Source of the DNA: an uncultured Gammaproteobacteria bacterium
Lineage (GTDB): Bacteria > Patescibacteriota > Patescibacteriia > Patescibacteriales > GWC2-42-12
Direction: 5' to 3'
DNA: 64,000 nucleotides
Assembly (NCBI GenBank): GCA_964431805.1
Contig: CAYSKV010000001.1
Location: forward strand, 61,698 to 125,697
Shown piece after piece: positions 2-22,203 of the stretch. A model generated the notes under the pieces. That model was not told the origin of the DNA and made no database searches. It was given only the letters and a program-made list of their open reading frames with translations. Each line of letters begins with the position of its first letter. Within the stretch, counting starts at the first letter, position 1. The position numbers were made by a program, and so were the translations under genes.

Positions 2-487
2 AATCGAAGCATAAATTATCAAACTATAGAAGGCTCTAACGGGTTATTTTCTAAATTAACTATTAATTACGCTCATAATGGTAAAGTTGATTGGAAAACC
101 AGCGCTTATAAAAGTTATACTAGAGTTTATGTTCCTTTAGGCAGCCAATTAATAAAAATTAGCGGTTATGAAAATAAAAATATAGATGTCGGAGATGAGC
201 TAGGTAAAACTTGGTTTGGCTTTTATTTAGTCGTAGAACCAGGAAAAATCAGTAATATTACGCTTGAATATAAGCTGCCGTCATCAGTTATGTCAAATAA
301 TAATTATAGCCTTTATATCCAGAAGCAGCCGGGCAAAGAATTAGATAATCTTTCGGTTGACTTAAGCTTTAAAAATGGTATAAAATCATATAGTCCAGCG
401 AGCTTGTCTATGAAAAAAATAAACCCAACCAGAATGAAATGGTCAGGGGATTTAGGCATAGATCGGGATTTTGAAATCAAGTTTTGA
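2..487 (+). CDS. DUF4012 domain-containing protein, C-terminal part (5' end outside window)
   Basis: Frame 2 is open from the window edge to TGA 485-487. The tail (..GFYLVVEPGKISNITLEYKLP..YSLYIQKQPG..) parallels the C-terminal region of the 912-aa paralogue at 19318-22056 (..IEIKIKYKLPF..YSLLVQKQPG..). The ATG at 290 in the ORF track is internal. Confidence 0.7.
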   Translation, partial: NRSINYQTIEGSNGLFSKLTINYAHNGKVDWKTSAYKSYTRVYVPLGSQLIKISGYENKNIDVGDELGKTWFGFYLVVEPGKISNITLEYKLPSSVMSNNNYSLYIQKQPGKELDNLSVDLSFKNGIKSYSPASLSMKKINPTRMKWSGDLGIDRDFEIKF

Positions 488-625
488 TTAATTATCAATT
501 TTCAATAACCAATTATCAATAAATGATCAATTATTAAATTTTCAATTGCTTGTCCTGCTTAGGCAGGGAAAATTAATGCATTGAAAATTGTTTGAAAATT
601 GAGAATTGATAATTGAAAATTTCAT
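488..625. repeat. Dyad-symmetric array of about ten WTCAAT / ATTGAW boxes around a short GC hairpin (CCTGC-TTAG-GCAGG, 554-567)
   Basis: Left arm: ATTATCAAT, TTTTCAAT, ATTATCAAT, ATGATCAAT, TTTTCAAT. Right arm carries the reverse complements: ATTGAAAA, TTTGAAAA, ATTGATAA, ATTGAAAA. AATTTTCAATTGC (538-550) pairs with GCATTGAAAATT (577-588). Confidence 0.6.
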
Positions 626-633
626 TATATATT

Positions 634-1641
634 ATGTTTATAAAACGGATCGGTATAGATCTTGGTACAGCTTACACTTTAGTGCATTTGCCAAAAAGGG
701 GCATTATTATTAATGAGCCAAGCGTAGTGGCGATTTCTTTAATTGATAAAAAGATTTTAGCCGTGGGCAATGAAGCTAAAGACATGTTAGGCAGAACGCC
801 TGACACTATTGTCGCGATTAAACCTTTAAAAGACGGCGTCATCGCTGATTATCATACAACTGAAGCTATGCTTAGATATTTCATTAATAAAGCTTTAGGC
901 GGTATTAGATTATTTAGGCCGGAAGTTATGGTGGCCGTTCCGGCGGGAATTACCTCGACCGAACGCAGAGCGGTAATTGACGCGACTATAGCGGCCGGAG
1001 CCAGAGCCGCTTATATTATTAAAGAACCGATTGCCGCGGCGATTGGCGCCGATATTCCGATCGGTTCGGCTTCCGGACATATGATTATTGATATTGGCGG
1101 CGGTACGGCGGAAATGGCGGTAATTTCTTTGGGCGGAGTCGTTACTTCGACCTCGGTTAGAATCGGCGGTAATAAATTCGACGCGGCGATTCAGGAATTT
1201 ATTAGGCGAAAATATAATTTAGCTATCGGCGAAAGAACGGCCGAAGAAATTAAAATTAAAATAGGCAGCGCTCTGTATTTAGAAGATAAATTAACTATGG
1301 AGATAAGGGGCCGCGATATGATTACCGGTTTACCGAGAAATATTACGGTTAATTCGGATGACGTTACCGAAGCGGTGCAAAATGAATTAGAAGCTATTAT
1401 TAATGCGGCGAAAAGAGTGCTCCAGGATACTCCGCCGGAATTAGCCGCGGATATTATGGATAAAGGCATGGTTTTATCCGGCGGAAGTTCGCTACTTAGA
1501 AATATTGATCAATTACTTTCCCGCACAACAGATGTGCCGGCCTACGTTGCCGATGATGCTTTGCTTTGCGTTGCTAAAGGAACCGGCATTGCTTTAGAAA
1601 ATTTGGACTCATATAAGAGAAGTATTTTTGCGACGAAATAA
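634..1641 (+). CDS. mreB: Rod shape-determining protein MreB
   Basis: Actin-fold motifs IGIDLGTAYTLV, DIGGGTAEMAV, VLSGGSSLLRNID over the full length. ATG 634 is preferred over the upstream TTG 613 of the ORF track. Confidence 0.95.
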   Translation: MFIKRIGIDLGTAYTLVHLPKRGIIINEPSVVAISLIDKKILAVGNEAKDMLGRTPDTIVAIKPLKDGVIADYHTTEAMLRYFINKALGGIRLFRPEVMVAVPAGITSTERRAVIDATIAAGARAAYIIKEPIAAAIGADIPIGSASGHMIIDIGGGTAEMAVISLGGVVTSTSVRIGGNKFDAAIQEFIRRKYNLAIGERTAEEIKIKIGSALYLEDKLTMEIRGRDMITGLPRNITVNSDDVTEAVQNELEAIINAAKRVLQDTPPELAADIMDKGMVLSGGSSLLRNIDQLLSRTTDVPAYVADDALLCVAKGTGIALENLDSYKRSIFATK

Positions 1642-1660
1642 AAAATAAAAGCCAATAAAT
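1632..1660. repeat. Left copy of a 29-bp perfect inverted repeat (GACGAAATAAAAAATAAAAGCCAATAAAT)
   Basis: Exact reverse complement of 2109-2137. Overlaps the last codons and stop of mreB. Confidence 0.9.
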
Positions 1661-1662
1661 AT

Positions 1663-2109
1663 ATGGAATTTAAAACTGTTTTTTTTACAGTTCTTTCAGG
1701 TGTATTGGTATATATTATCGGTCAAATCATTAATAAATTTTATATTGAACCTATACAAAGGCAAAAAGAAACTATAGGTAAAATATCAGATGCTTTAATT
1801 TATTATTCTAATTTATATACCTCACCAAAAATCTCAGCAACCCAAGAGTTTGATAGGCCTGAAAAACGAGAAAAAGCACATGAAGATTTCAGAAATTTAG
1901 CTTGCGAGCTAGTGTCCAGAACGCATCAAATACCGCATTATATATATTTATCATATTTAAAAATCGTACCAAAAGAAAAAATTATAATCATATCCAGAGG
2001 AAACTTGATTGGTCTGTCAAATGGTATGTGGCCAAGTTATGAAAGCATGCAACATAATATAAAATTTCAAAAAGAGCTTGAAACAAATTTAGATTTGCTT
2101 ACTGAATAA
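1663..2109 (+). CDS. Hypothetical membrane-anchored protein (148 aa)
   Basis: Intact ORF with one N-terminal hydrophobic helix (VFFTVLSGVLVYIIGQII). No family recognised. Bracketed by the 29-bp inverted repeat. Confidence 0.6.
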   Translation: MEFKTVFFTVLSGVLVYIIGQIINKFYIEPIQRQKETIGKISDALIYYSNLYTSPKISATQEFDRPEKREKAHEDFRNLACELVSRTHQIPHYIYLSYLKIVPKEKIIIISRGNLIGLSNGMWPSYESMQHNIKFQKELETNLDLLTE

Positions 2110-2137
2110 TTTATTGGCTTTTATTTTTTATTTCGTC
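2109..2137. repeat. Right copy of the 29-bp perfect inverted repeat (ATTTATTGGCTTTTATTTTTTATTTCGTC)
   Basis: Exact reverse complement of 1632-1660. Starts at the last base of the ORF's stop codon and abuts the GC hairpin repeat. Confidence 0.9.
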
Positions 2138-2167
2138 ATTCCGGCCTCCGAGCCGGAATCTAGGGGT
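2135..2167. repeat. GC-rich hairpin repeat GTCATTCCGGCCTCCGAGCCGGAATCTAGGGGT (left bracket of the R-M cassette)
   Basis: 8-bp stem ATTCCGGC/GCCGGAAT. Near-identical copy in inverted orientation at 4300-4331. Confidence 0.85.
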
Positions 2168-2254
2168 AAATAGAAAAATAGGTGTTTTTTCGCGGAGTTT
2201 ACCCCACTGAATAGCAGGGGTACAAAAATGATTTAATTAATTTTTAAAATACTT

Positions 2255-2962
2255 ATGCCGTATCTAAAATTTATATCCGACAAAAATTTAATTTCTGCCG
2301 TTGGAAAAGTAGTCAAAATAATAGAAATGACGGAACGTGAGGCGAGTAGTAATCTTCATAAAAATGTTATTGATCCTTTTTCAGCCTTGTTCCATGGCGT
2401 CACTCATTCAATAGCATACAAAGAATGGATAAAACAAGAAAAGGCCAGACAATCACAAAAAACAATGCAAAATGCCATAGGTGATTTTCATCAAGAAATA
2501 TTAGGTGCAATCCCTGGTTGGAAAAATCTCGGAGTTGGTGGAGGGTTGGATGTTGCAAACGATAAAATGAAAATTATTGCAGAAATAAAAAATAAATTTA
2601 ATACAACAAAAGGAAATCATAAGGTTGAAATATATAATGCCATAGAGTCAAAACTTAAATCAGAAAAATTTAATGGTTTTATTGGATATTATGTAGAAAT
2701 AATACCTCAGGCAAAAAGCATATACAACAAACCCTTTACCCCATCGGACAATAAGACCCACAAGAGAAAACCGAGCAAAAAAAATATCAGAGTAATTGAT
2801 GGTATAAGTTTTTATACTCTTGCAACCGGACGAAAATATGCCCTACAGGAACTATTTGAAGCGTTATCTCATATTTTAGTAGATGAATACAAATTTAAAT
2901 TAAGCAAAGAAGAAGCTAAAAAATATTTTGAATTATTTAAATTAGCCTTTTTAACTAAATAA
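2255..2962 (+). CDS. Putative type II restriction endonuclease (PD-(D/E)XK-like)
   Basis: 235-aa ORF directly upstream of a C5-methyltransferase. Candidate catalytic motif GLDV..(10 aa)..AEIKNK. Size and the NVIDPFSA region recall Eco47II-type enzymes from memory only (unverified). Confidence 0.55.
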   Translation: MPYLKFISDKNLISAVGKVVKIIEMTEREASSNLHKNVIDPFSALFHGVTHSIAYKEWIKQEKARQSQKTMQNAIGDFHQEILGAIPGWKNLGVGGGLDVANDKMKIIAEIKNKFNTTKGNHKVEIYNAIESKLKSEKFNGFIGYYVEIIPQAKSIYNKPFTPSDNKTHKRKPSKKNIRVIDGISFYTLATGRKYALQELFEALSHILVDEYKFKLSKEEAKKYFELFKLAFLTK

Positions 2963-2980
2963 CCATTGCCTAGGCAATGG
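2963..2980 (+). terminator. Perfect palindrome CCATTGCC-TA-GGCAATGG followed by TTATTT, between the R and M genes
   Basis: 8-bp GC-containing stem immediately after the stop codon, with a U-rich tail. Confidence 0.5.
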
Positions 2981-2985
2981 TTATT

Positions 2986-2994
2986 TGATATAAT
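2986..2994 (+). promoter_or_regulatory. Extended -10 promoter TGATATAAT for the methyltransferase gene
   Basis: TGnTATAAT match 29 nt upstream of ATG 3023. The same TGnTATAAT form recurs at other gene starts in this window. Confidence 0.5.
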
Positions 2995-2997
2995 TAT

Positions 2998-3016
2998 GAT
3001 AGATTATTAATCTATC
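2998..3016. promoter_or_regulatory. 19-bp perfect palindrome GATAGATTA-T-TAATCTATC (candidate operator)
   Basis: 9+1+9 perfect dyad lying between the -10 box and the start codon of the HTH-methyltransferase. Confidence 0.5.
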
Positions 3017-3022
3017 TTTTTT

Positions 3023-4276
3023 ATGAAAAAAAATCAATTTATAACCGCTGGAGAAGCCGCCCGTCGATTAGGTATTTCAATTGATACTATTAGAAGGTGG
3101 GACAAAAAAGGACTAATTAAATCTTTTAGAGATGAAAAAAACGATCGCATATTTAGTTTAGAAGAAATAAAAAGAATACAAAACAAAACTTACGGAGACA
3201 AAAAAAGTAAGTTTAAAATTTTAAAGAATAATAGAATGTCAAACTACACAGCGATCGAATTATTCGCTGGTGCGGGGGGCACTGCTTTAGGGATGGAAAA
3301 TGCAGGTATTGAGCATGTACTATTGAATGAGTATGACAAATATGCCTGCGAAACACTTCGGATTAATAAACCAAATTGGAATGTTGTCGAAAAAGATATA
3401 AGAGAACTAAAATTTTTTAATGGGCAAGCCGACATTGTTCAAGGAGGTTTTCCCTGCCAAACTTTTTCGCAAGCTGGTCGAAAAATGGGTTTTGAGGATA
3501 TACGAGGTACATTGTTTTTTGAGTTTGCGAGATGTGTTAAAGAAGTTAAGCCTAAAATTGCAATTGGAGAAAATGTCAAAGGATTGCTCAACCATGACAA
3601 TGGTAGAACAATTAAGACGATGGTGTCTGTTTTAGAAGAAATTGGATATCGAGTTAAATATAAAATTTTACGATCACAATATTTGGATGTTCCGCAAAAA
3701 AGAGAACGTCTTATAATTATTGGGGTTAGAAAAGATTTAAATATTCCTATTTCATTTCCAAAAGAAAAAGATTATATTATTCCTCTGCGCGAAGCATTCA
3801 GCAAATGTCCAAAATCTGAAGGCCAAAAATATCCAGAAAAAAAGAAAAAAATATTAGAATTAATTCCTCCTGGCGGATATTGGAGAGATCTTCCGGAAAA
3901 TCTTCAAAAAGAATACATGGGGGCAAGTTATTTCATGGGTGGCGGCAAAACTGGTATGGCAAGAAGATTGTCGTGGGACGAACCGTCTTTAACCTTGACT
4001 TGTAGCCCGGCTCAAAAACAAACTGAACGTTGTCATCCAAATGAAACACGTCCTTTGTCAGTGCGCGAATATGCACGAATTCAAACATTTCCAGATAGTT
4101 GGAAATTTTCAGGATCCGTTTCGCAGCAGTATAAACAAATAGGTAATGCTGTACCGGTAAACCTTGGATATCACATTGGCGACATGATAATTAAAATGCT
4201 TAACGGTGAAATTGAAGAAGAAAAAGATGAGGCGCTTATGTTTATTCAGCAAAAATTATTTGCTTTTGCTACGTAA
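3023..4276 (+). CDS. dcm: DNA (cytosine-5)-methyltransferase with N-terminal MerR/excisionase-type HTH domain
   Basis: C5-MTase motifs: I ELFAGAGG, IV GGFPCQTFS, VI GENVKGL, VIII QKRERLIIIG, X GNAVPV. The first ~70 aa carry ITAGEAARRLGISIDTIRRWDKKGLI, in the same frame with no intervening stop. Confidence 0.9.
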   Translation: MKKNQFITAGEAARRLGISIDTIRRWDKKGLIKSFRDEKNDRIFSLEEIKRIQNKTYGDKKSKFKILKNNRMSNYTAIELFAGAGGTALGMENAGIEHVLLNEYDKYACETLRINKPNWNVVEKDIRELKFFNGQADIVQGGFPCQTFSQAGRKMGFEDIRGTLFFEFARCVKEVKPKIAIGENVKGLLNHDNGRTIKTMVSVLEEIGYRVKYKILRSQYLDVPQKRERLIIIGVRKDLNIPISFPKEKDYIIPLREAFSKCPKSEGQKYPEKKKKILELIPPGGYWRDLPENLQKEYMGASYFMGGGKTGMARRLSWDEPSLTLTCSPAQKQTERCHPNETRPLSVREYARIQTFPDSWKFSGSVSQQYKQIGNAVPVNLGYHIGDMIIKMLNGEIEEEKDEALMFIQQKLFAFAT

Positions 4277-4299
4277 TAAAATTTTGACTTTAAGTATTC

Positions 4300-4331
4300 A
4301 CCCCTAGATTCCGGGTCAAGCCCGGAATGAC
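4300..4331. repeat. GC-rich hairpin repeat ACCCCTAGATTCCGGGTCAAGCCCGGAATGAC (right bracket, inverted)
   Basis: Its reverse complement GTCATTCCGGGCTTGACCCGGAATCTAGGGGT matches 2135-2167 except in the loop. Confidence 0.85.
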
Positions 4332-4356
4332 AAAAAAGATAATAATAATTTAATTT

Positions 4357-5613
4357 ATGCTCATCGGTATTGACGCCTCGCGCGCCAACAGACAATTTAA
4401 AGGCGGAACAGAATGGTATTCTTATTATTTAATAAGAGAACTGGCTAAAATTGATTCTAAAAATCAGTATATTTTATATACGGATAAGCCTTTAACCGGC
4501 GGTTTAGCCGATTTAACCGATGAAAATCATTCGGCTACGCCCGGTAAAATAGATAAACATGGCGAGCAGGAAGTTAAAAGTCCGTTCGGAAATTTTCGCG
4601 TTAAAATTTTAAGATGGCCGTTTATTTATTTTTGGACACAAATTAGATTATCTTATGAAATGTTCGTTCGTCCGGCGGACATTCTTTTTGTTCCGGCTCA
4701 TACTCTACCGGTTATTCATCCAAAAAAATCAATCGTTACGATTCATGATATAGGCTTTGAGCGTTTCGCTAAACTTTATAGCTCGGATAAAATCGGTCCG
4801 GCTTCTAGATCTATTAATTTTTTAATTAAATTATTTACTTTAGGCAAATTGCATCCTGACGTTATTAGCCATCATAGCTGGTCAACGAGATTCGCGCTTA
4901 AGCACGCTAAAATAATTATTTCGGTTTCAGAATTTACTAAAAAAGAAATGGTGGATTTTTATAAAGCTGATGCGGAAAAAATTAAAGTGGTTCATAATGG
5001 TTTTAATAACGAACTTTATCGCCCGATAAATGACAAGGAAAAGATAAAACAAGTTTTAGATAAGTATGATATTAAAACTCCTTATATTTTTTATGTCGGC
5101 CGTTTAGAAAAAAAGAAAAATACCGCTACCTTAGTTAACGCTTACGCGATTATGAGGCAAAAACATAAGGACATAAAACATAAATTAGTTTTAGTCGGTA
5201 AGTCCGGGCTTGGCTTTGATGAAGTTAAATATGTTATTAATGAATTTAATCTTGACGAAGAGGTGATTATAACCGGTTGGGCGCCGGAAGAAGATATGCC
5301 CTATATTCATAACGGCGCTGCTTTATTTGTTTTTCCTTCGCTTTACGAAGGCTTTGGCATACCGTTAGTTGAGGCTATGGCTTCGGGCGTACCAATCGCG
5401 GCTTCAAATATTGCATCCATCCCGGAAGTTGTTAAAGATTCGGCTTTGCTTTTTGACCCAAACGATAAAGAAGATATGGCGGAAAAAATGGCAAAGATAT
5501 TATTAGATAAGCGGCTAGCCGATGAATTAATTAATAAGGGATTTGAGCGGGCAAAAGATTTTAGCTTAACTAAATGCGCTCAGGAAATATTAGCGTTAAT
5601 GGAAAAGATGTGA
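4357..5613 (+). CDS. Glycosyltransferase family 1 (GT4-type)
   Basis: C-terminal E-x7-E region EGFGIPLVEAMASGVPIAASN; typical GT-B length. Confidence 0.85.
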   Translation: MLIGIDASRANRQFKGGTEWYSYYLIRELAKIDSKNQYILYTDKPLTGGLADLTDENHSATPGKIDKHGEQEVKSPFGNFRVKILRWPFIYFWTQIRLSYEMFVRPADILFVPAHTLPVIHPKKSIVTIHDIGFERFAKLYSSDKIGPASRSINFLIKLFTLGKLHPDVISHHSWSTRFALKHAKIIISVSEFTKKEMVDFYKADAEKIKVVHNGFNNELYRPINDKEKIKQVLDKYDIKTPYIFYVGRLEKKKNTATLVNAYAIMRQKHKDIKHKLVLVGKSGLGFDEVKYVINEFNLDEEVIITGWAPEEDMPYIHNGAALFVFPSLYEGFGIPLVEAMASGVPIAASNIASIPEVVKDSALLFDPNDKEDMAEKMAKILLDKRLADELINKGFERAKDFSLTKCAQEILALMEKM

Positions 5614-8056: not shown

Positions 8057-8198
8057 CCTTTAAAAACTTTTTTAGAAAAAGTTTTTAATATTTTCAAAAA
8101 ATATAAAGTATCAAATAAAAATTTTATAGCGAGTAAAACTCTACGGCCATAAAATTTTAATTCGATAAATAATAAACTAATAAAATATTTATAATTAT
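8057..8198 (+). repeat. Two-hairpin intergenic module, copy A
   Basis: Hairpin 1: TTAAAAACTTTTT-TAG-AAAAAGTTTTTAA (8060-8088). Hairpin 2: 8109-8167 with loop AGCGAGTAAAACTCTACGGCC. Fills the whole spacer between stop and next start. Confidence 0.9.
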
Positions 8199-9212: not shown

Positions 9213-9338
9213 CCTTTAAAAACCTTTTTAAAAAAGGTTTTTAATATTTTCCAAAATATAAGGTATCAAATAAAAATTTTAAAGCGAGCGAAGCTCTACG
9301 GCCATAAATTTTTTTATTTGATTATTATAAGTTAATTT
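9213..9338 (+). repeat. Two-hairpin intergenic module, copy B
   Basis: Hairpin 1: TAAAAACCTTTTT-AAA-AAAAAGGTTTTTA (an extra C:G pair). Hairpin 2: ~9263-9323 with loop AGCGAGCGAAGCTCTACGGCC. Confidence 0.9.
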
Positions 9339-10351: not shown

Positions 10352-10485
10352 ACCTTTAAAAACTTTTTTAGAAAAAGTTTTCCCCTAAAGGGATAAATAA
10401 TATTTTCAAAAATATAAGGTATTAAGTAAAAATTTCATAGCGAGCAAAGCTCTACGGCTATAAAATTTTTACTTAATTATGATAA
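10352..10485 (+). repeat. Two-hairpin intergenic module, copy C (with extra CCCT-AA-AGGG mini-hairpin)
   Basis: Hairpin 1 as in copy A. Hairpin 2 at ~10419-10478 has an altered but still complementary stem (TTAAGTAAAAATTT / AAATTTTTACTTAA) and loop AGCGAGCAAAGCTCTACGGCT. Confidence 0.9.
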
Positions 10486-22056: not shown

Positions 22057-22203
22057 AGCCTTTGAAAACTTTTTCAAAAAAAGTTTTCAATACTTTCCCC
22101 GCCTAAGCGGGATAAACAAAAAATATAACGTATCAAATTAAAATTTAATGGCCGTAGAGTTCTACTCGCTATTAAATTTTAATTTGATTATAATAAATAT
22201 TAT
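22057..22203 (+). repeat. Two-hairpin intergenic module, copy D (loop of hairpin 2 inverted; extra CCCGC-CTAA-GCGGG mini-hairpin)
   Basis: Hairpin 1: TTGAAAACTTTTT / AAAAAGTTTTCAA. The hairpin 2 (22130-22189) loop ATGGCCGTAGAGTTCTACTCGCTAT is the exact reverse complement of the copy E loop. Confidence 0.9.

Follow-up and report, generated by a model that had tools for sequence, protein, structure and literature searches.

To our knowledge, the regulatory DNA methyltransferases known so far come from a handful of enterobacterial and lactococcal restriction-modification (R-M) systems, all of them having helix-turn-helix (HTH) domains of the phage-repressor type. Such enzymes, which include those of the SsoII, Ecl18kI, EcoRII, MspI, ScrFIA and LlaJI systems, form an established category and occupy, as two monomers, an operator within their own promoter (PMC12707154, PMC3978073, PMC2760811), and M.SsoII's regulatory domain was modelled on the phage 434 repressor (PMC3978073). 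Here we analyse a 64-kb stretch of contig CAYSKV010000001.1 (the window, to which all positions refer), in which a gene for an Eco47II-family restriction endonuclease (R) is followed by a gene for a C5-methyltransferase (M) with an N-terminal HTH, and in which two perfect palindromes lie in and around the M promoter: palindrome 1 (30 bp) and, downstream of it, palindrome 2 (19 bp). We propose that the HTH probably binds the dyad of palindrome 1 over the -35 box, so that M represses itself, and that palindrome 2 is not an operator but a hairpin, possibly directed at read-through transcription. Judging from the sequence comparisons, the roles of the two palindromes are most likely the reverse of those proposed earlier from the DNA sequence alone (the sequence-only reading), in which the HTH was to bind palindrome 2 and the upstream palindrome was merely the R terminator.

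The M gene (3023-4276, + strand) is a single open reading frame (ORF) of 417 amino acids comprising a minimal MerR-type winged HTH (residues 1-58, 3023-3196), a basic linker of low model confidence (residues 59-75, 3197-3247; predicted local distance difference test score (pLDDT) 53-66, no secondary structure) and the catalytic domain of a C5 cytosine methyltransferase (residues 76-417 and the stop codon, 3248-4276). A MerR-type HTH in frame with a C5-methyltransferase had been recognised in the sequence-only reading, and it is borne out by Pfam, PDB profiles, AlphaFold and Foldseek. In Pfam, MerR (PF00376) matches residues 8-44 with an E value of 3.9e-11 (43 bits against a cut-off of 28.2), MerR_1 and HTH_17 also match, and DNA_methylase (PF00145) covers residues 76-391 (E 2.1e-85; TIGR00675, E 2.6e-79). 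Profile matches of the N-terminal region to the PDB are to MerR (4ua1, E 1e-7), CarA-N (2jml), RacA, BldC, GlnR/TnrA, SoxR and CueR, and the sole Xre-type match is very weak (E 0.5). In the model that AlphaFold gives for residues 1-72 (pLDDT ~80), a strand at residues 6-8 is followed by helices at 9-16 and 20-29, the second being the recognition helix, by wing strands at 34-36 and 42-45 and by a helix at 46-58, with disorder thereafter. Foldseek ranks BldC (6amk) first, followed by SoxR, NmlR, RacA, GlnR and CarH, with CueR-type domains also matched, and the match to BldC covers the whole of that protein with a template modelling (TM) score of 0.72 normalised to the target. AlphaFold modelled the full-length protein poorly (pLDDT 60), and we used only the N-terminal part of that model together with the separate N-terminal one; in these models no long helix of the kind that forms the coiled-coil dimerisation helix of MerR, and no effector region, follows residue 58, the linker and the methyltransferase being found there instead. 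An HTH of the Xre or phage repressor type, as modelled for M.SsoII, was not found, Pfam, the PDB profile search and Foldseek all giving the MerR type. As modelled, the N-terminal domain resembles BldC in being a minimal MerR-like winged HTH that lacks coiled-coil and effector parts.

Palindrome 1 (2957-2986; left half AAATAACCATTGCCT, right half AGGCAATGGTTATTT) is perfect over its 30 bp, within which lie the stop codon of R as well as the -35 box of the M promoter. Its core, a 22-bp dyad (2961-2982; AACCATTGCCT and AGGCAATGGTT), is the candidate operator of the fused HTH, and its centre is exactly TGCCTAGGCA. Since a 64-kb window is expected to hold only 0.13 perfect palindromes whose arms are 12 nt or longer, a 30-bp palindrome is far beyond chance, and neither its motif nor that of palindrome 2 has a second occurrence in the window. 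Relatives were drawn from 37 genomic loci, 80 metagenomic loci found with an HTH profile and 12 contigs with chosen homologues. Among them, 62 assessable loci have a DT[IV]RRW recognition helix, and over a range of 28-58% GC and 43-96% HTH identity the core AACCnTTGCAT(0-2)ATGCAAnGGTT is present in 61 of the 62. It is kept where R is adjacent, where R lies 100 nt away and where R is downstream and convergent (L066, L096), as well as where R is undetectable (L020, L022, L050, L054, L059, L069, L090, L104). Hence, whatever the position of R, palindrome 1 is part of the M promoter rather than of the R 3' end. It is missing, on the other hand, from the relatives whose methylase lacks the HTH (L027, L030, L032, L034). 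The sequence-only reading had described a hairpin at 2963-2980 as R's own 3' end; a palindrome does lie there, but it is really 30 bp long at 2957-2986, and the element accompanies the HTH and is kept without R upstream.

These patterns also bear on the reading that palindrome 1 serves the R-M junction structurally, combining an R 3' hairpin with the -35 box, while the HTH does something else; it could, for example, tether the methyltransferase non-specifically to DNA or have its site elsewhere. Palindrome 1 does fold as RNA (-18 kcal/mol in the window, median -10.8 kcal/mol in the relatives), and its start coincides with the R stop codon in the closest relatives, as this reading would have it. 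We nevertheless hold it to be improbable, given that the palindrome is retained with R absent, distant or convergent and is missing with the HTH, and that its 10-bp core is found upstream of unrelated HTH-TOBE genes (see below). The pairing of the half-sites argues in the same direction, with 9.0 of 11 positions paired against 8.98 expected for independent halves and 1-4 mismatches in most sites, while each half-site carries ~17 bits of information (40 distinct site sequences) and no U-run or T-run follows palindrome 1 in the relatives' sites. A conserved sequence with no excess of complementarity and no U-run marks a protein-binding site rather than a hairpin under selection. At positions 6 and 8 the left half-site tolerates less variation than the right, which is expected if the left half doubles as the -35 box. 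From these sequence patterns we conclude that the dyad of palindrome 1 is most likely the operator of the fused HTH.

Independent support for this assignment comes from proteins without a methylase. The nearest HTH domains outside the methylases are in HTH-TOBE proteins of ~125 amino acids from high-GC bacteria, which are 43-59% identical over ~50 residues, and some of them share the S-x-DT[IL]RRW helix exactly with the methylases. In 32 of 50 HTH-TOBE loci, one or two TGCMTAKGCA units, the two at 11-bp spacing, lie in the ~90 nt before the gene, where their density is 10.7 per kb as opposed to 0.11 per kb elsewhere in those loci. Units of the TGCCTAGGCA type upstream of HTH-TOBE genes hence support palindrome 1 as the site of this HTH. 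A strict skeleton common to both groups, CC-N3-GCA-N1-3-TGC-N3-GG, is nearly absent elsewhere. As a separate observation, the tandem TGCCTAGGCA units of HTH-TOBE loci (L051-L117) have an 11-bp period and lie over the gene start, and the second of them often encodes the conserved N-terminal residues MPRQ; here the operator may constrain the first codons, or the reverse.

The promoter in which palindrome 1 is embedded consists of a -35 hexamer TTGCCT (2966-2971, + strand), inside the left half of the palindrome, and, after a 17-nt spacer, an extended -10 box TGATATAAT (2986-2994, + strand), the latter already placed there, ahead of the ATG at 3023, by the sequence-only reading. With 10 of 12 matches and a TG extension, TTGCCT-17-TGnTATAAT is the top promoter match in 1500-4600. 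A TATAAT-like hexamer follows palindrome 1 after 5-6 nt in 43 of 58 loci (in ~30 of the 58 with the TG extension), and the -35/-10 spacer, 17 nt in the window, is 17-18 nt in the relatives, the dyad centre lying near -30, over the -35 box. This geometry speaks to classical MerR-style activation, in which the HTH would sit in the spacer, distort the DNA and activate the M promoter. The domain belongs to the MerR family and the site extends into the -35/-10 spacer, which is what such activation would need, but we give it only the slimmest chance: the spacer has the optimal 17-18 bp rather than 19-20 bp, and an operator centred in an over-long 19-20 bp spacer, as in MerR systems, was found neither in the window nor in the relatives; the promoter already has an extended -10 box; and the coiled-coil and effector domains required for the switch are missing. 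Repression by occlusion of the -35 box fits the position of the dyad, and that is the reading we carry forward.

The M transcription start is predicted at 3001 (± 2 nt, + strand), 7 nt after the -10 box and inside the left arm of palindrome 2. It is placed there because ~20 leaderless relatives have their start codon 5-9 nt after the same -10 box. Leader lengths among the relatives are indeed bimodal, being either 5-9 nt in these leaderless loci or 28-31 nt with a hairpin. In one relative (L017, 890-1120), an insertion of ~230 nt with GC-rich hairpins, flanked by duplicated AATTATG, separates the -10 box of the M promoter from its hairpin and looks like a small mobile element that has come between promoter and gene.

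Palindrome 2 (2998-3016, + strand; GATAGATTA-T-TAATCTATC) is a perfect 9+1+9 repeat with an AU-rich stem of 9 bp, and the sequence-only reading was right to report it over the expected start. Between it and the ATG there is a run of six T residues (T6; 3017-3022, + strand) and no Shine-Dalgarno sequence; we propose that the T6 run is a terminator tail and/or an AU-rich leader, and nearly all AT-rich relatives likewise have a T-run after the stem. By chance alone palindrome 2 is unremarkable, as 13 perfect palindromes whose arms reach 9 nt or more occur in the window (4.9 ± 2.1 in shuffles) and a stem as long as this one appears in 15% of shuffles of the 36-nt leader. The case for its being real hence comes from its conservation among relatives. 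The close ones have a longer form, ATGATAGA..TCTATCAT, which corresponds to 2996-3018, but the sequence ATGATAGA-N5-7-TCTATCAT is kept only in relatives that are at least 80% identical. At 72-77% identity the recognition helix, S-x-DTIRRW, is the same and the stems at this position are unrelated, and at 64-70% identity there is no leader and hence no palindrome 2. Altogether at least nine unrelated stem sequences occur at the position of palindrome 2, including those of L121-L124, L126, L127, L042 and L045, the last two being more distant, GC-richer members. The arms are ATAATAGTA and TACTATTAT in L121, TATGGAT and ATCCATA in L122, TAGTGGT and ATCACTA in L124, TTGTGAT and ATCACAA in L126, AGTGATAT and ATATCACT in L127, CCGTTCCC and GGGACGG in L042, and TCCTTA and TAAGGA in L045. 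A covariance model recovered the close relatives and, weakly, L124, L127, L123 and L121; as its alignment was contaminated by minus-strand matches, the stems were listed directly for comparison instead.

The sequence-only reading, in which the HTH binds palindrome 2 over the start and the upstream palindrome is no more than the R terminator, can be weighed against this series. It gains from the perfection of palindrome 2 and its position across the predicted start, from the conservation of its arms, with symmetric changes, among relatives of 80% identity or more, and from the MspI-type methyltransferases, which bind over their own start site (PMC2760811). Yet an identical recognition helix faces the unrelated stems TATGGAT, TAGTGGT, TTGTGAT and AGTGATAT at 72-77% identity, whereas the site of a conserved HTH would not change so; the ~20 leaderless relatives have no palindrome 2 at all; the spacing of the arms varies from 5 to 7 nt and the mismatches are mostly G.U on the sense strand; and it is the upstream palindrome whose sequence is kept, even with no R gene before it. 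That palindrome 2 is the operator of the HTH is therefore very improbable, and its lack of conservation in homologues is an outcome that the sequence-only reading had itself named as fatal to its proposal. Unrelated stems under an identical recognition helix point instead to a hairpin, the loop of which is 3-10 nt long in the relatives.

As to what such a hairpin would do, its position is informative. The left arm follows the -10 hexamer at a distance of 0-4 nt, the two overlapping in L121, L123 and L012, and the RNA folds with -6.6 kcal/mol if transcribed from upstream, as against -0.8 kcal/mol from the predicted start. With a start at ~3001, transcripts from the M promoter would lack the left arm, and only RNA arriving from R would fold the stem before U6 and the AUG. 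We tentatively suggest, at somewhat less than even odds, that the hairpin ends or silences read-through from R while it leaves transcripts of the M promoter untouched. It might instead act on the M transcript or on the DNA, as a 5' stabiliser or a translational element, if transcription started at or upstream of 2996. The hairpin does lie 6 nt before the ATG, in front of a U-rich leader without a Shine-Dalgarno sequence, and in L042 and L045 its right arm is purine-rich and Shine-Dalgarno-like. A left arm that abuts or overlaps the -10 hexamer, and leaderless relatives that put the start 6-9 nt after the -10 box, make this a doubtful alternative to a hairpin aimed at read-through.

Several points weigh against our proposal. 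The dyad of palindrome 1, which forms a hairpin as RNA, possibly has a second role at the 3' end of R, and one relative (L048) does without palindrome 1. In many HTH-TOBE loci the codons ATG CCT AGG CAG (MPRQ) fall on the second unit, so that part of the enrichment may be due to coding, and the strict skeleton is found in just 7 of 50 HTH-TOBE loci and 11 of 26 methylase loci. The stem of palindrome 2 is AU-rich and weak, as are, in being AU-rich, the other terminator-like palindromes in the window; a terminator scan gave no site in 1500-4600; RNAalifold found no consensus structure in a MAFFT alignment of the leaders, in which the divergent stems are badly aligned and AU-rich; and the GC-rich variants in L042 and L045 have no U-run. 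Finally, while the family and fold of the domain, its fusion to M, the patterns of conservation and the geometry of the promoter are observed, we infer the binding of the dyad, the repression, the transcription start and the role of the hairpin from sequence and its conservation.

With these points in mind, the regulation may be pictured as follows. On entry of the module into a methyltransferase-free cell, the strong M promoter would be free and M would accumulate, and R would be expressed at most from a weak promoter with an extended -10 (TGATTTAAT) only. Once M had accumulated, its HTH would occupy the dyad over the -35 box and spacer, RNA polymerase would be excluded and the M promoter shut, which amounts to negative autoregulation of M like that of M.EcoRII, M.MspI and M.ScrFIA. 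Two M monomers would probably assemble on the DNA of the dyad, because the domain lacks a dimerisation helix and the site varies at its centre by 0-2 bp. The hairpin would stop or silence read-through from R just before the M start codon, such that M stayed under its own autoregulated promoter, and leaderless relatives could obtain the same insulation, since an internal AUG without a Shine-Dalgarno sequence would be poorly used.

A bolder version, which we think rather unlikely as a whole, is that the module is a self-contained, context-proof cassette with three functions nested in 60 bp. First, the HTH-methylase on the dyad, over the last R codon and its own -35 box, may autorepress M, and bound M could also block polymerases that are finishing R; if true, R output would be inversely coupled to the level of M, a wiring opposite to that of SsoII. 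Second, the M promoter may fire from within a hairpin whose stopping or silencing effect is confined to foreign or read-through transcripts, with leaderless relatives insulated by a different route. Third, the same HTH clade may read the TGCCTAGGCA core in unrelated regulators. Insulation of this kind makes sense if the modules travel as promoter-independent cassettes, as suggested by the integron-like array around the L003 copy that is described below.

The genes themselves fit an R-M system of the Eco47II type, in which an Eco47II-family endonuclease gene adjoins a C5-methyltransferase gene. R (2255-2962, + strand; stop codon TAA at 2960-2962) encodes 235 amino acids and matches RE_Eco47II (PF09553) with an E value of 1.7e-49 over profile positions 1-197 of 202. 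The order is R then M in tandem, with M starting 60 bp downstream of R. By analogy with its family, R is a putative cutter of GGNCC, the sequence given for Eco47II homologues (PMC10305163). There is no GGNCC site within 2200-4300, and the 46 sites counted in the window, against 49.3 expected, are uninformative about avoidance at 64 kb. DNA similarity to the closest relatives is confined to 2224/2225 through 4269/4276 and the flanks are unrelated, so that the unit is a two-gene module of 2.05 kb (2225-4276). This shared module contains R and M alone, with no separate C gene and no C-box, in agreement with the sequence-only reading, which had seen no gene for a C protein; the 148-aa ORF upstream of R lies outside the module and has no family match in Pfam. 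The 30 nt of module DNA 5' of R (2225-2254, + strand) hold an extended -10-like TGATTTAAT at 2229-2237 and no -35 box, and on this basis they are a candidate weak R promoter with an extended -10 only. No site resembling palindrome 1 was seen upstream of R, and direct control of the R promoter by the HTH was dropped for that reason.

The fusion of HTH and methylase is conserved. An N-terminal HTH is present in 119 of the 120 best database homologues (67-100% identity), which are mostly from Patescibacteria and represent more than 100 distinct proteins. On plasmids of cultured bacteria (Psychrobacter pA15P1, Bacteroides, Vibrio), the relatives differ in HTH subtype and palindrome 1 is missing, and in viral contigs there was neither a relative of the methylase nor a copy of the hairpin motif. 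On two contigs, L100 (89-330) and L118 (2786-4041), HTH and methylase are separate ORFs. Neither was accepted as split genes: the frameshift in the linker of L100 could be a sequencing error or mark a pseudogene, and L118, with a contig coverage of 1.4x and R fragmented too, probably contains assembly frameshifts. Both are poor evidence for stand-alone regulators. In a relative from Peribacteria (L023, 4001-4030), an in-frame TGA follows nine methylase codons and similarity continues past it, which could reflect a pseudogene or an alternative genetic code. Methylase relatives of ~55% identity (L024, 1400-1470; L025, 1410-1480; L031, ~3950-3990) have an ETLRRW helix and other repeats, either two copies of GTAACCATnACTAAGGTT or AACCAT-N17-ATGGTT, which have only the AACC/GGTT ends in common with palindrome 1 and may reflect a shifted specificity. 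The HTH type is itself widespread, with 2943 cluster representatives at E ≤0.001, and often comes in at least two tandem N-terminal copies (P0121-P0270; L084, 1512-2990) in proteins that vary widely in length, up to more than 4000 amino acids; the search of the representative library returned mostly proteins with such tandem copies and says little on the frequency of the methylase fusion.

Inverted copies of a ~52-nt element, 81-91% complementary, bracket the R-M module at 2121-2172 and 4295-4345, and each holds the hairpin CATTCCGG-N6-8-CCGGAAT, of which there are two copies in 64 kb and none in shuffles. The 148-aa ORF (1663-2109, family unassigned) is likewise bracketed by a perfect 29-nt inverted pair (1632-1660 and 2109-2137), the left arm of which overlaps the end of mreB. 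In the L003 locus (140-5385, contig JBAZMQ010000010.1), five successive units, the R-M module among them, each lie between inverted pairs of 23-30 nt. The right arms all end in AAC and are followed by a palindromic spacer of 40-150 nt, beyond which the following left arm opens with GTT; CGACAAC at 1606-1612, for instance, has GTTGTCG at 693 as its reverse complement. From its sequence this array appears to be organised like integron gene cassettes with their attC sites, except that the complementarity is unusually long; no search for an integrase was made. Elsewhere in the window, AT-rich perfect palindromes of the form AAAAAC(C)TTTTT-n-AAAAAG(G)TTTTT recur at 8060-8088, 9216-9244, 10359-10381 and 22062-22090; those at 8060 and 9216 come directly after ORF ends, and they are probably the intrinsic terminators of this organism.

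The wider interest of the locus is that it represents a large uncharacterised family, mostly from Patescibacteria (the Candidate Phyla Radiation, CPR), in which a minimal MerR-type domain appears to do the same job as the HTH of the described regulatory methyltransferases, adding a case of convergent evolution of R-M autoregulation. It offers a precise and testable candidate operator in AACCnTTGCAT(0-2)ATGCAAnGGTT, a small DNA-binding module with a defined candidate site that is usable as a part, and a natural series of promoter architectures, leaderless or hairpin-leadered, as a route into gene regulation in unculturable organisms. It also illustrates that a palindrome, even if perfect and placed over a transcription start, need not be an operator. 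In a limited search of the literature we found no account of a C5-methyltransferase fused to a MerR-type HTH, and the architecture is visible in public annotations.

Compared with known systems, the locus has the make-up of a regulatory methyltransferase, with a C5-methyltransferase, a preceding HTH of ~55-70 amino acids and a linker in one polypeptide. The 22-23 bp dyad over the -35 box is a candidate for the palindromic operator that such enzymes have in their promoter, apart from the methylation site. The analogy with SsoII-type enzymes drawn in the sequence-only reading is apt (PMC3978073, PMC2760811, PMC12707154). M.SsoII and M.Ecl18kI likewise have an N-terminal DNA-binding region of ~70 amino acids, a flexible linker and a C5-methyltransferase, and their palindromic operator in their own promoter, steric exclusion and probable action as two monomers are what we propose here (PMC3978073, PMC2760811). 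Their HTH, however, is of the Xre or phage 434 repressor type and not a MerR-type winged HTH, their operator is 15 bp long as compared with the 22-23 bp dyad, and their R and M genes are divergent, with R activated via promoter competition, whereas here R and M are in tandem and no operator is seen near the R promoter. M.EcoRII, M.MspI, M.ScrFIA and M1.LlaJI repress their own gene with no shown effect on R (PMC3978073), which is the behaviour we predict here, but they have another HTH class and gene order and none is reported as MerR-type in the literature consulted. In C-protein systems (PvuII, AhdI, Esp1396I) an HTH regulator encoded by the module also sets the timing or level of expression, from a separate C gene and through a C-box, while the HTH here is of another family and fused to M. 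The same truncated fold, HTH, wing and one more helix without coiled-coil or effector parts, is found in BldC, RacA and Xis-type domains (PMC5859096). These are stand-alone proteins, and BldC binds direct repeats as head-to-tail multimers; the domain described here is fused to an enzyme and its candidate site is an inverted repeat. The HTH-TOBE proteins resemble M in HTH sequence and in the TGCCTAGGCA-type units just upstream of the gene, and differ in their C-terminal TOBE partner and in having two tandem 10-bp units without the AACC/GGTT flanks. As for the enzymes, Eco47II- and Sau96I-type GGNCC systems pair an Eco47II-family R with a C5-methyltransferase as here, and partners without an HTH exist, among them DCM4 of M. 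hominis (337 amino acids; PMC10305163) and those of the HTH-less loci. Hence the locus would work like the regulatory methyltransferases, and it differs from them in HTH family, operator length, gene order and the hairpin nested in its promoter.

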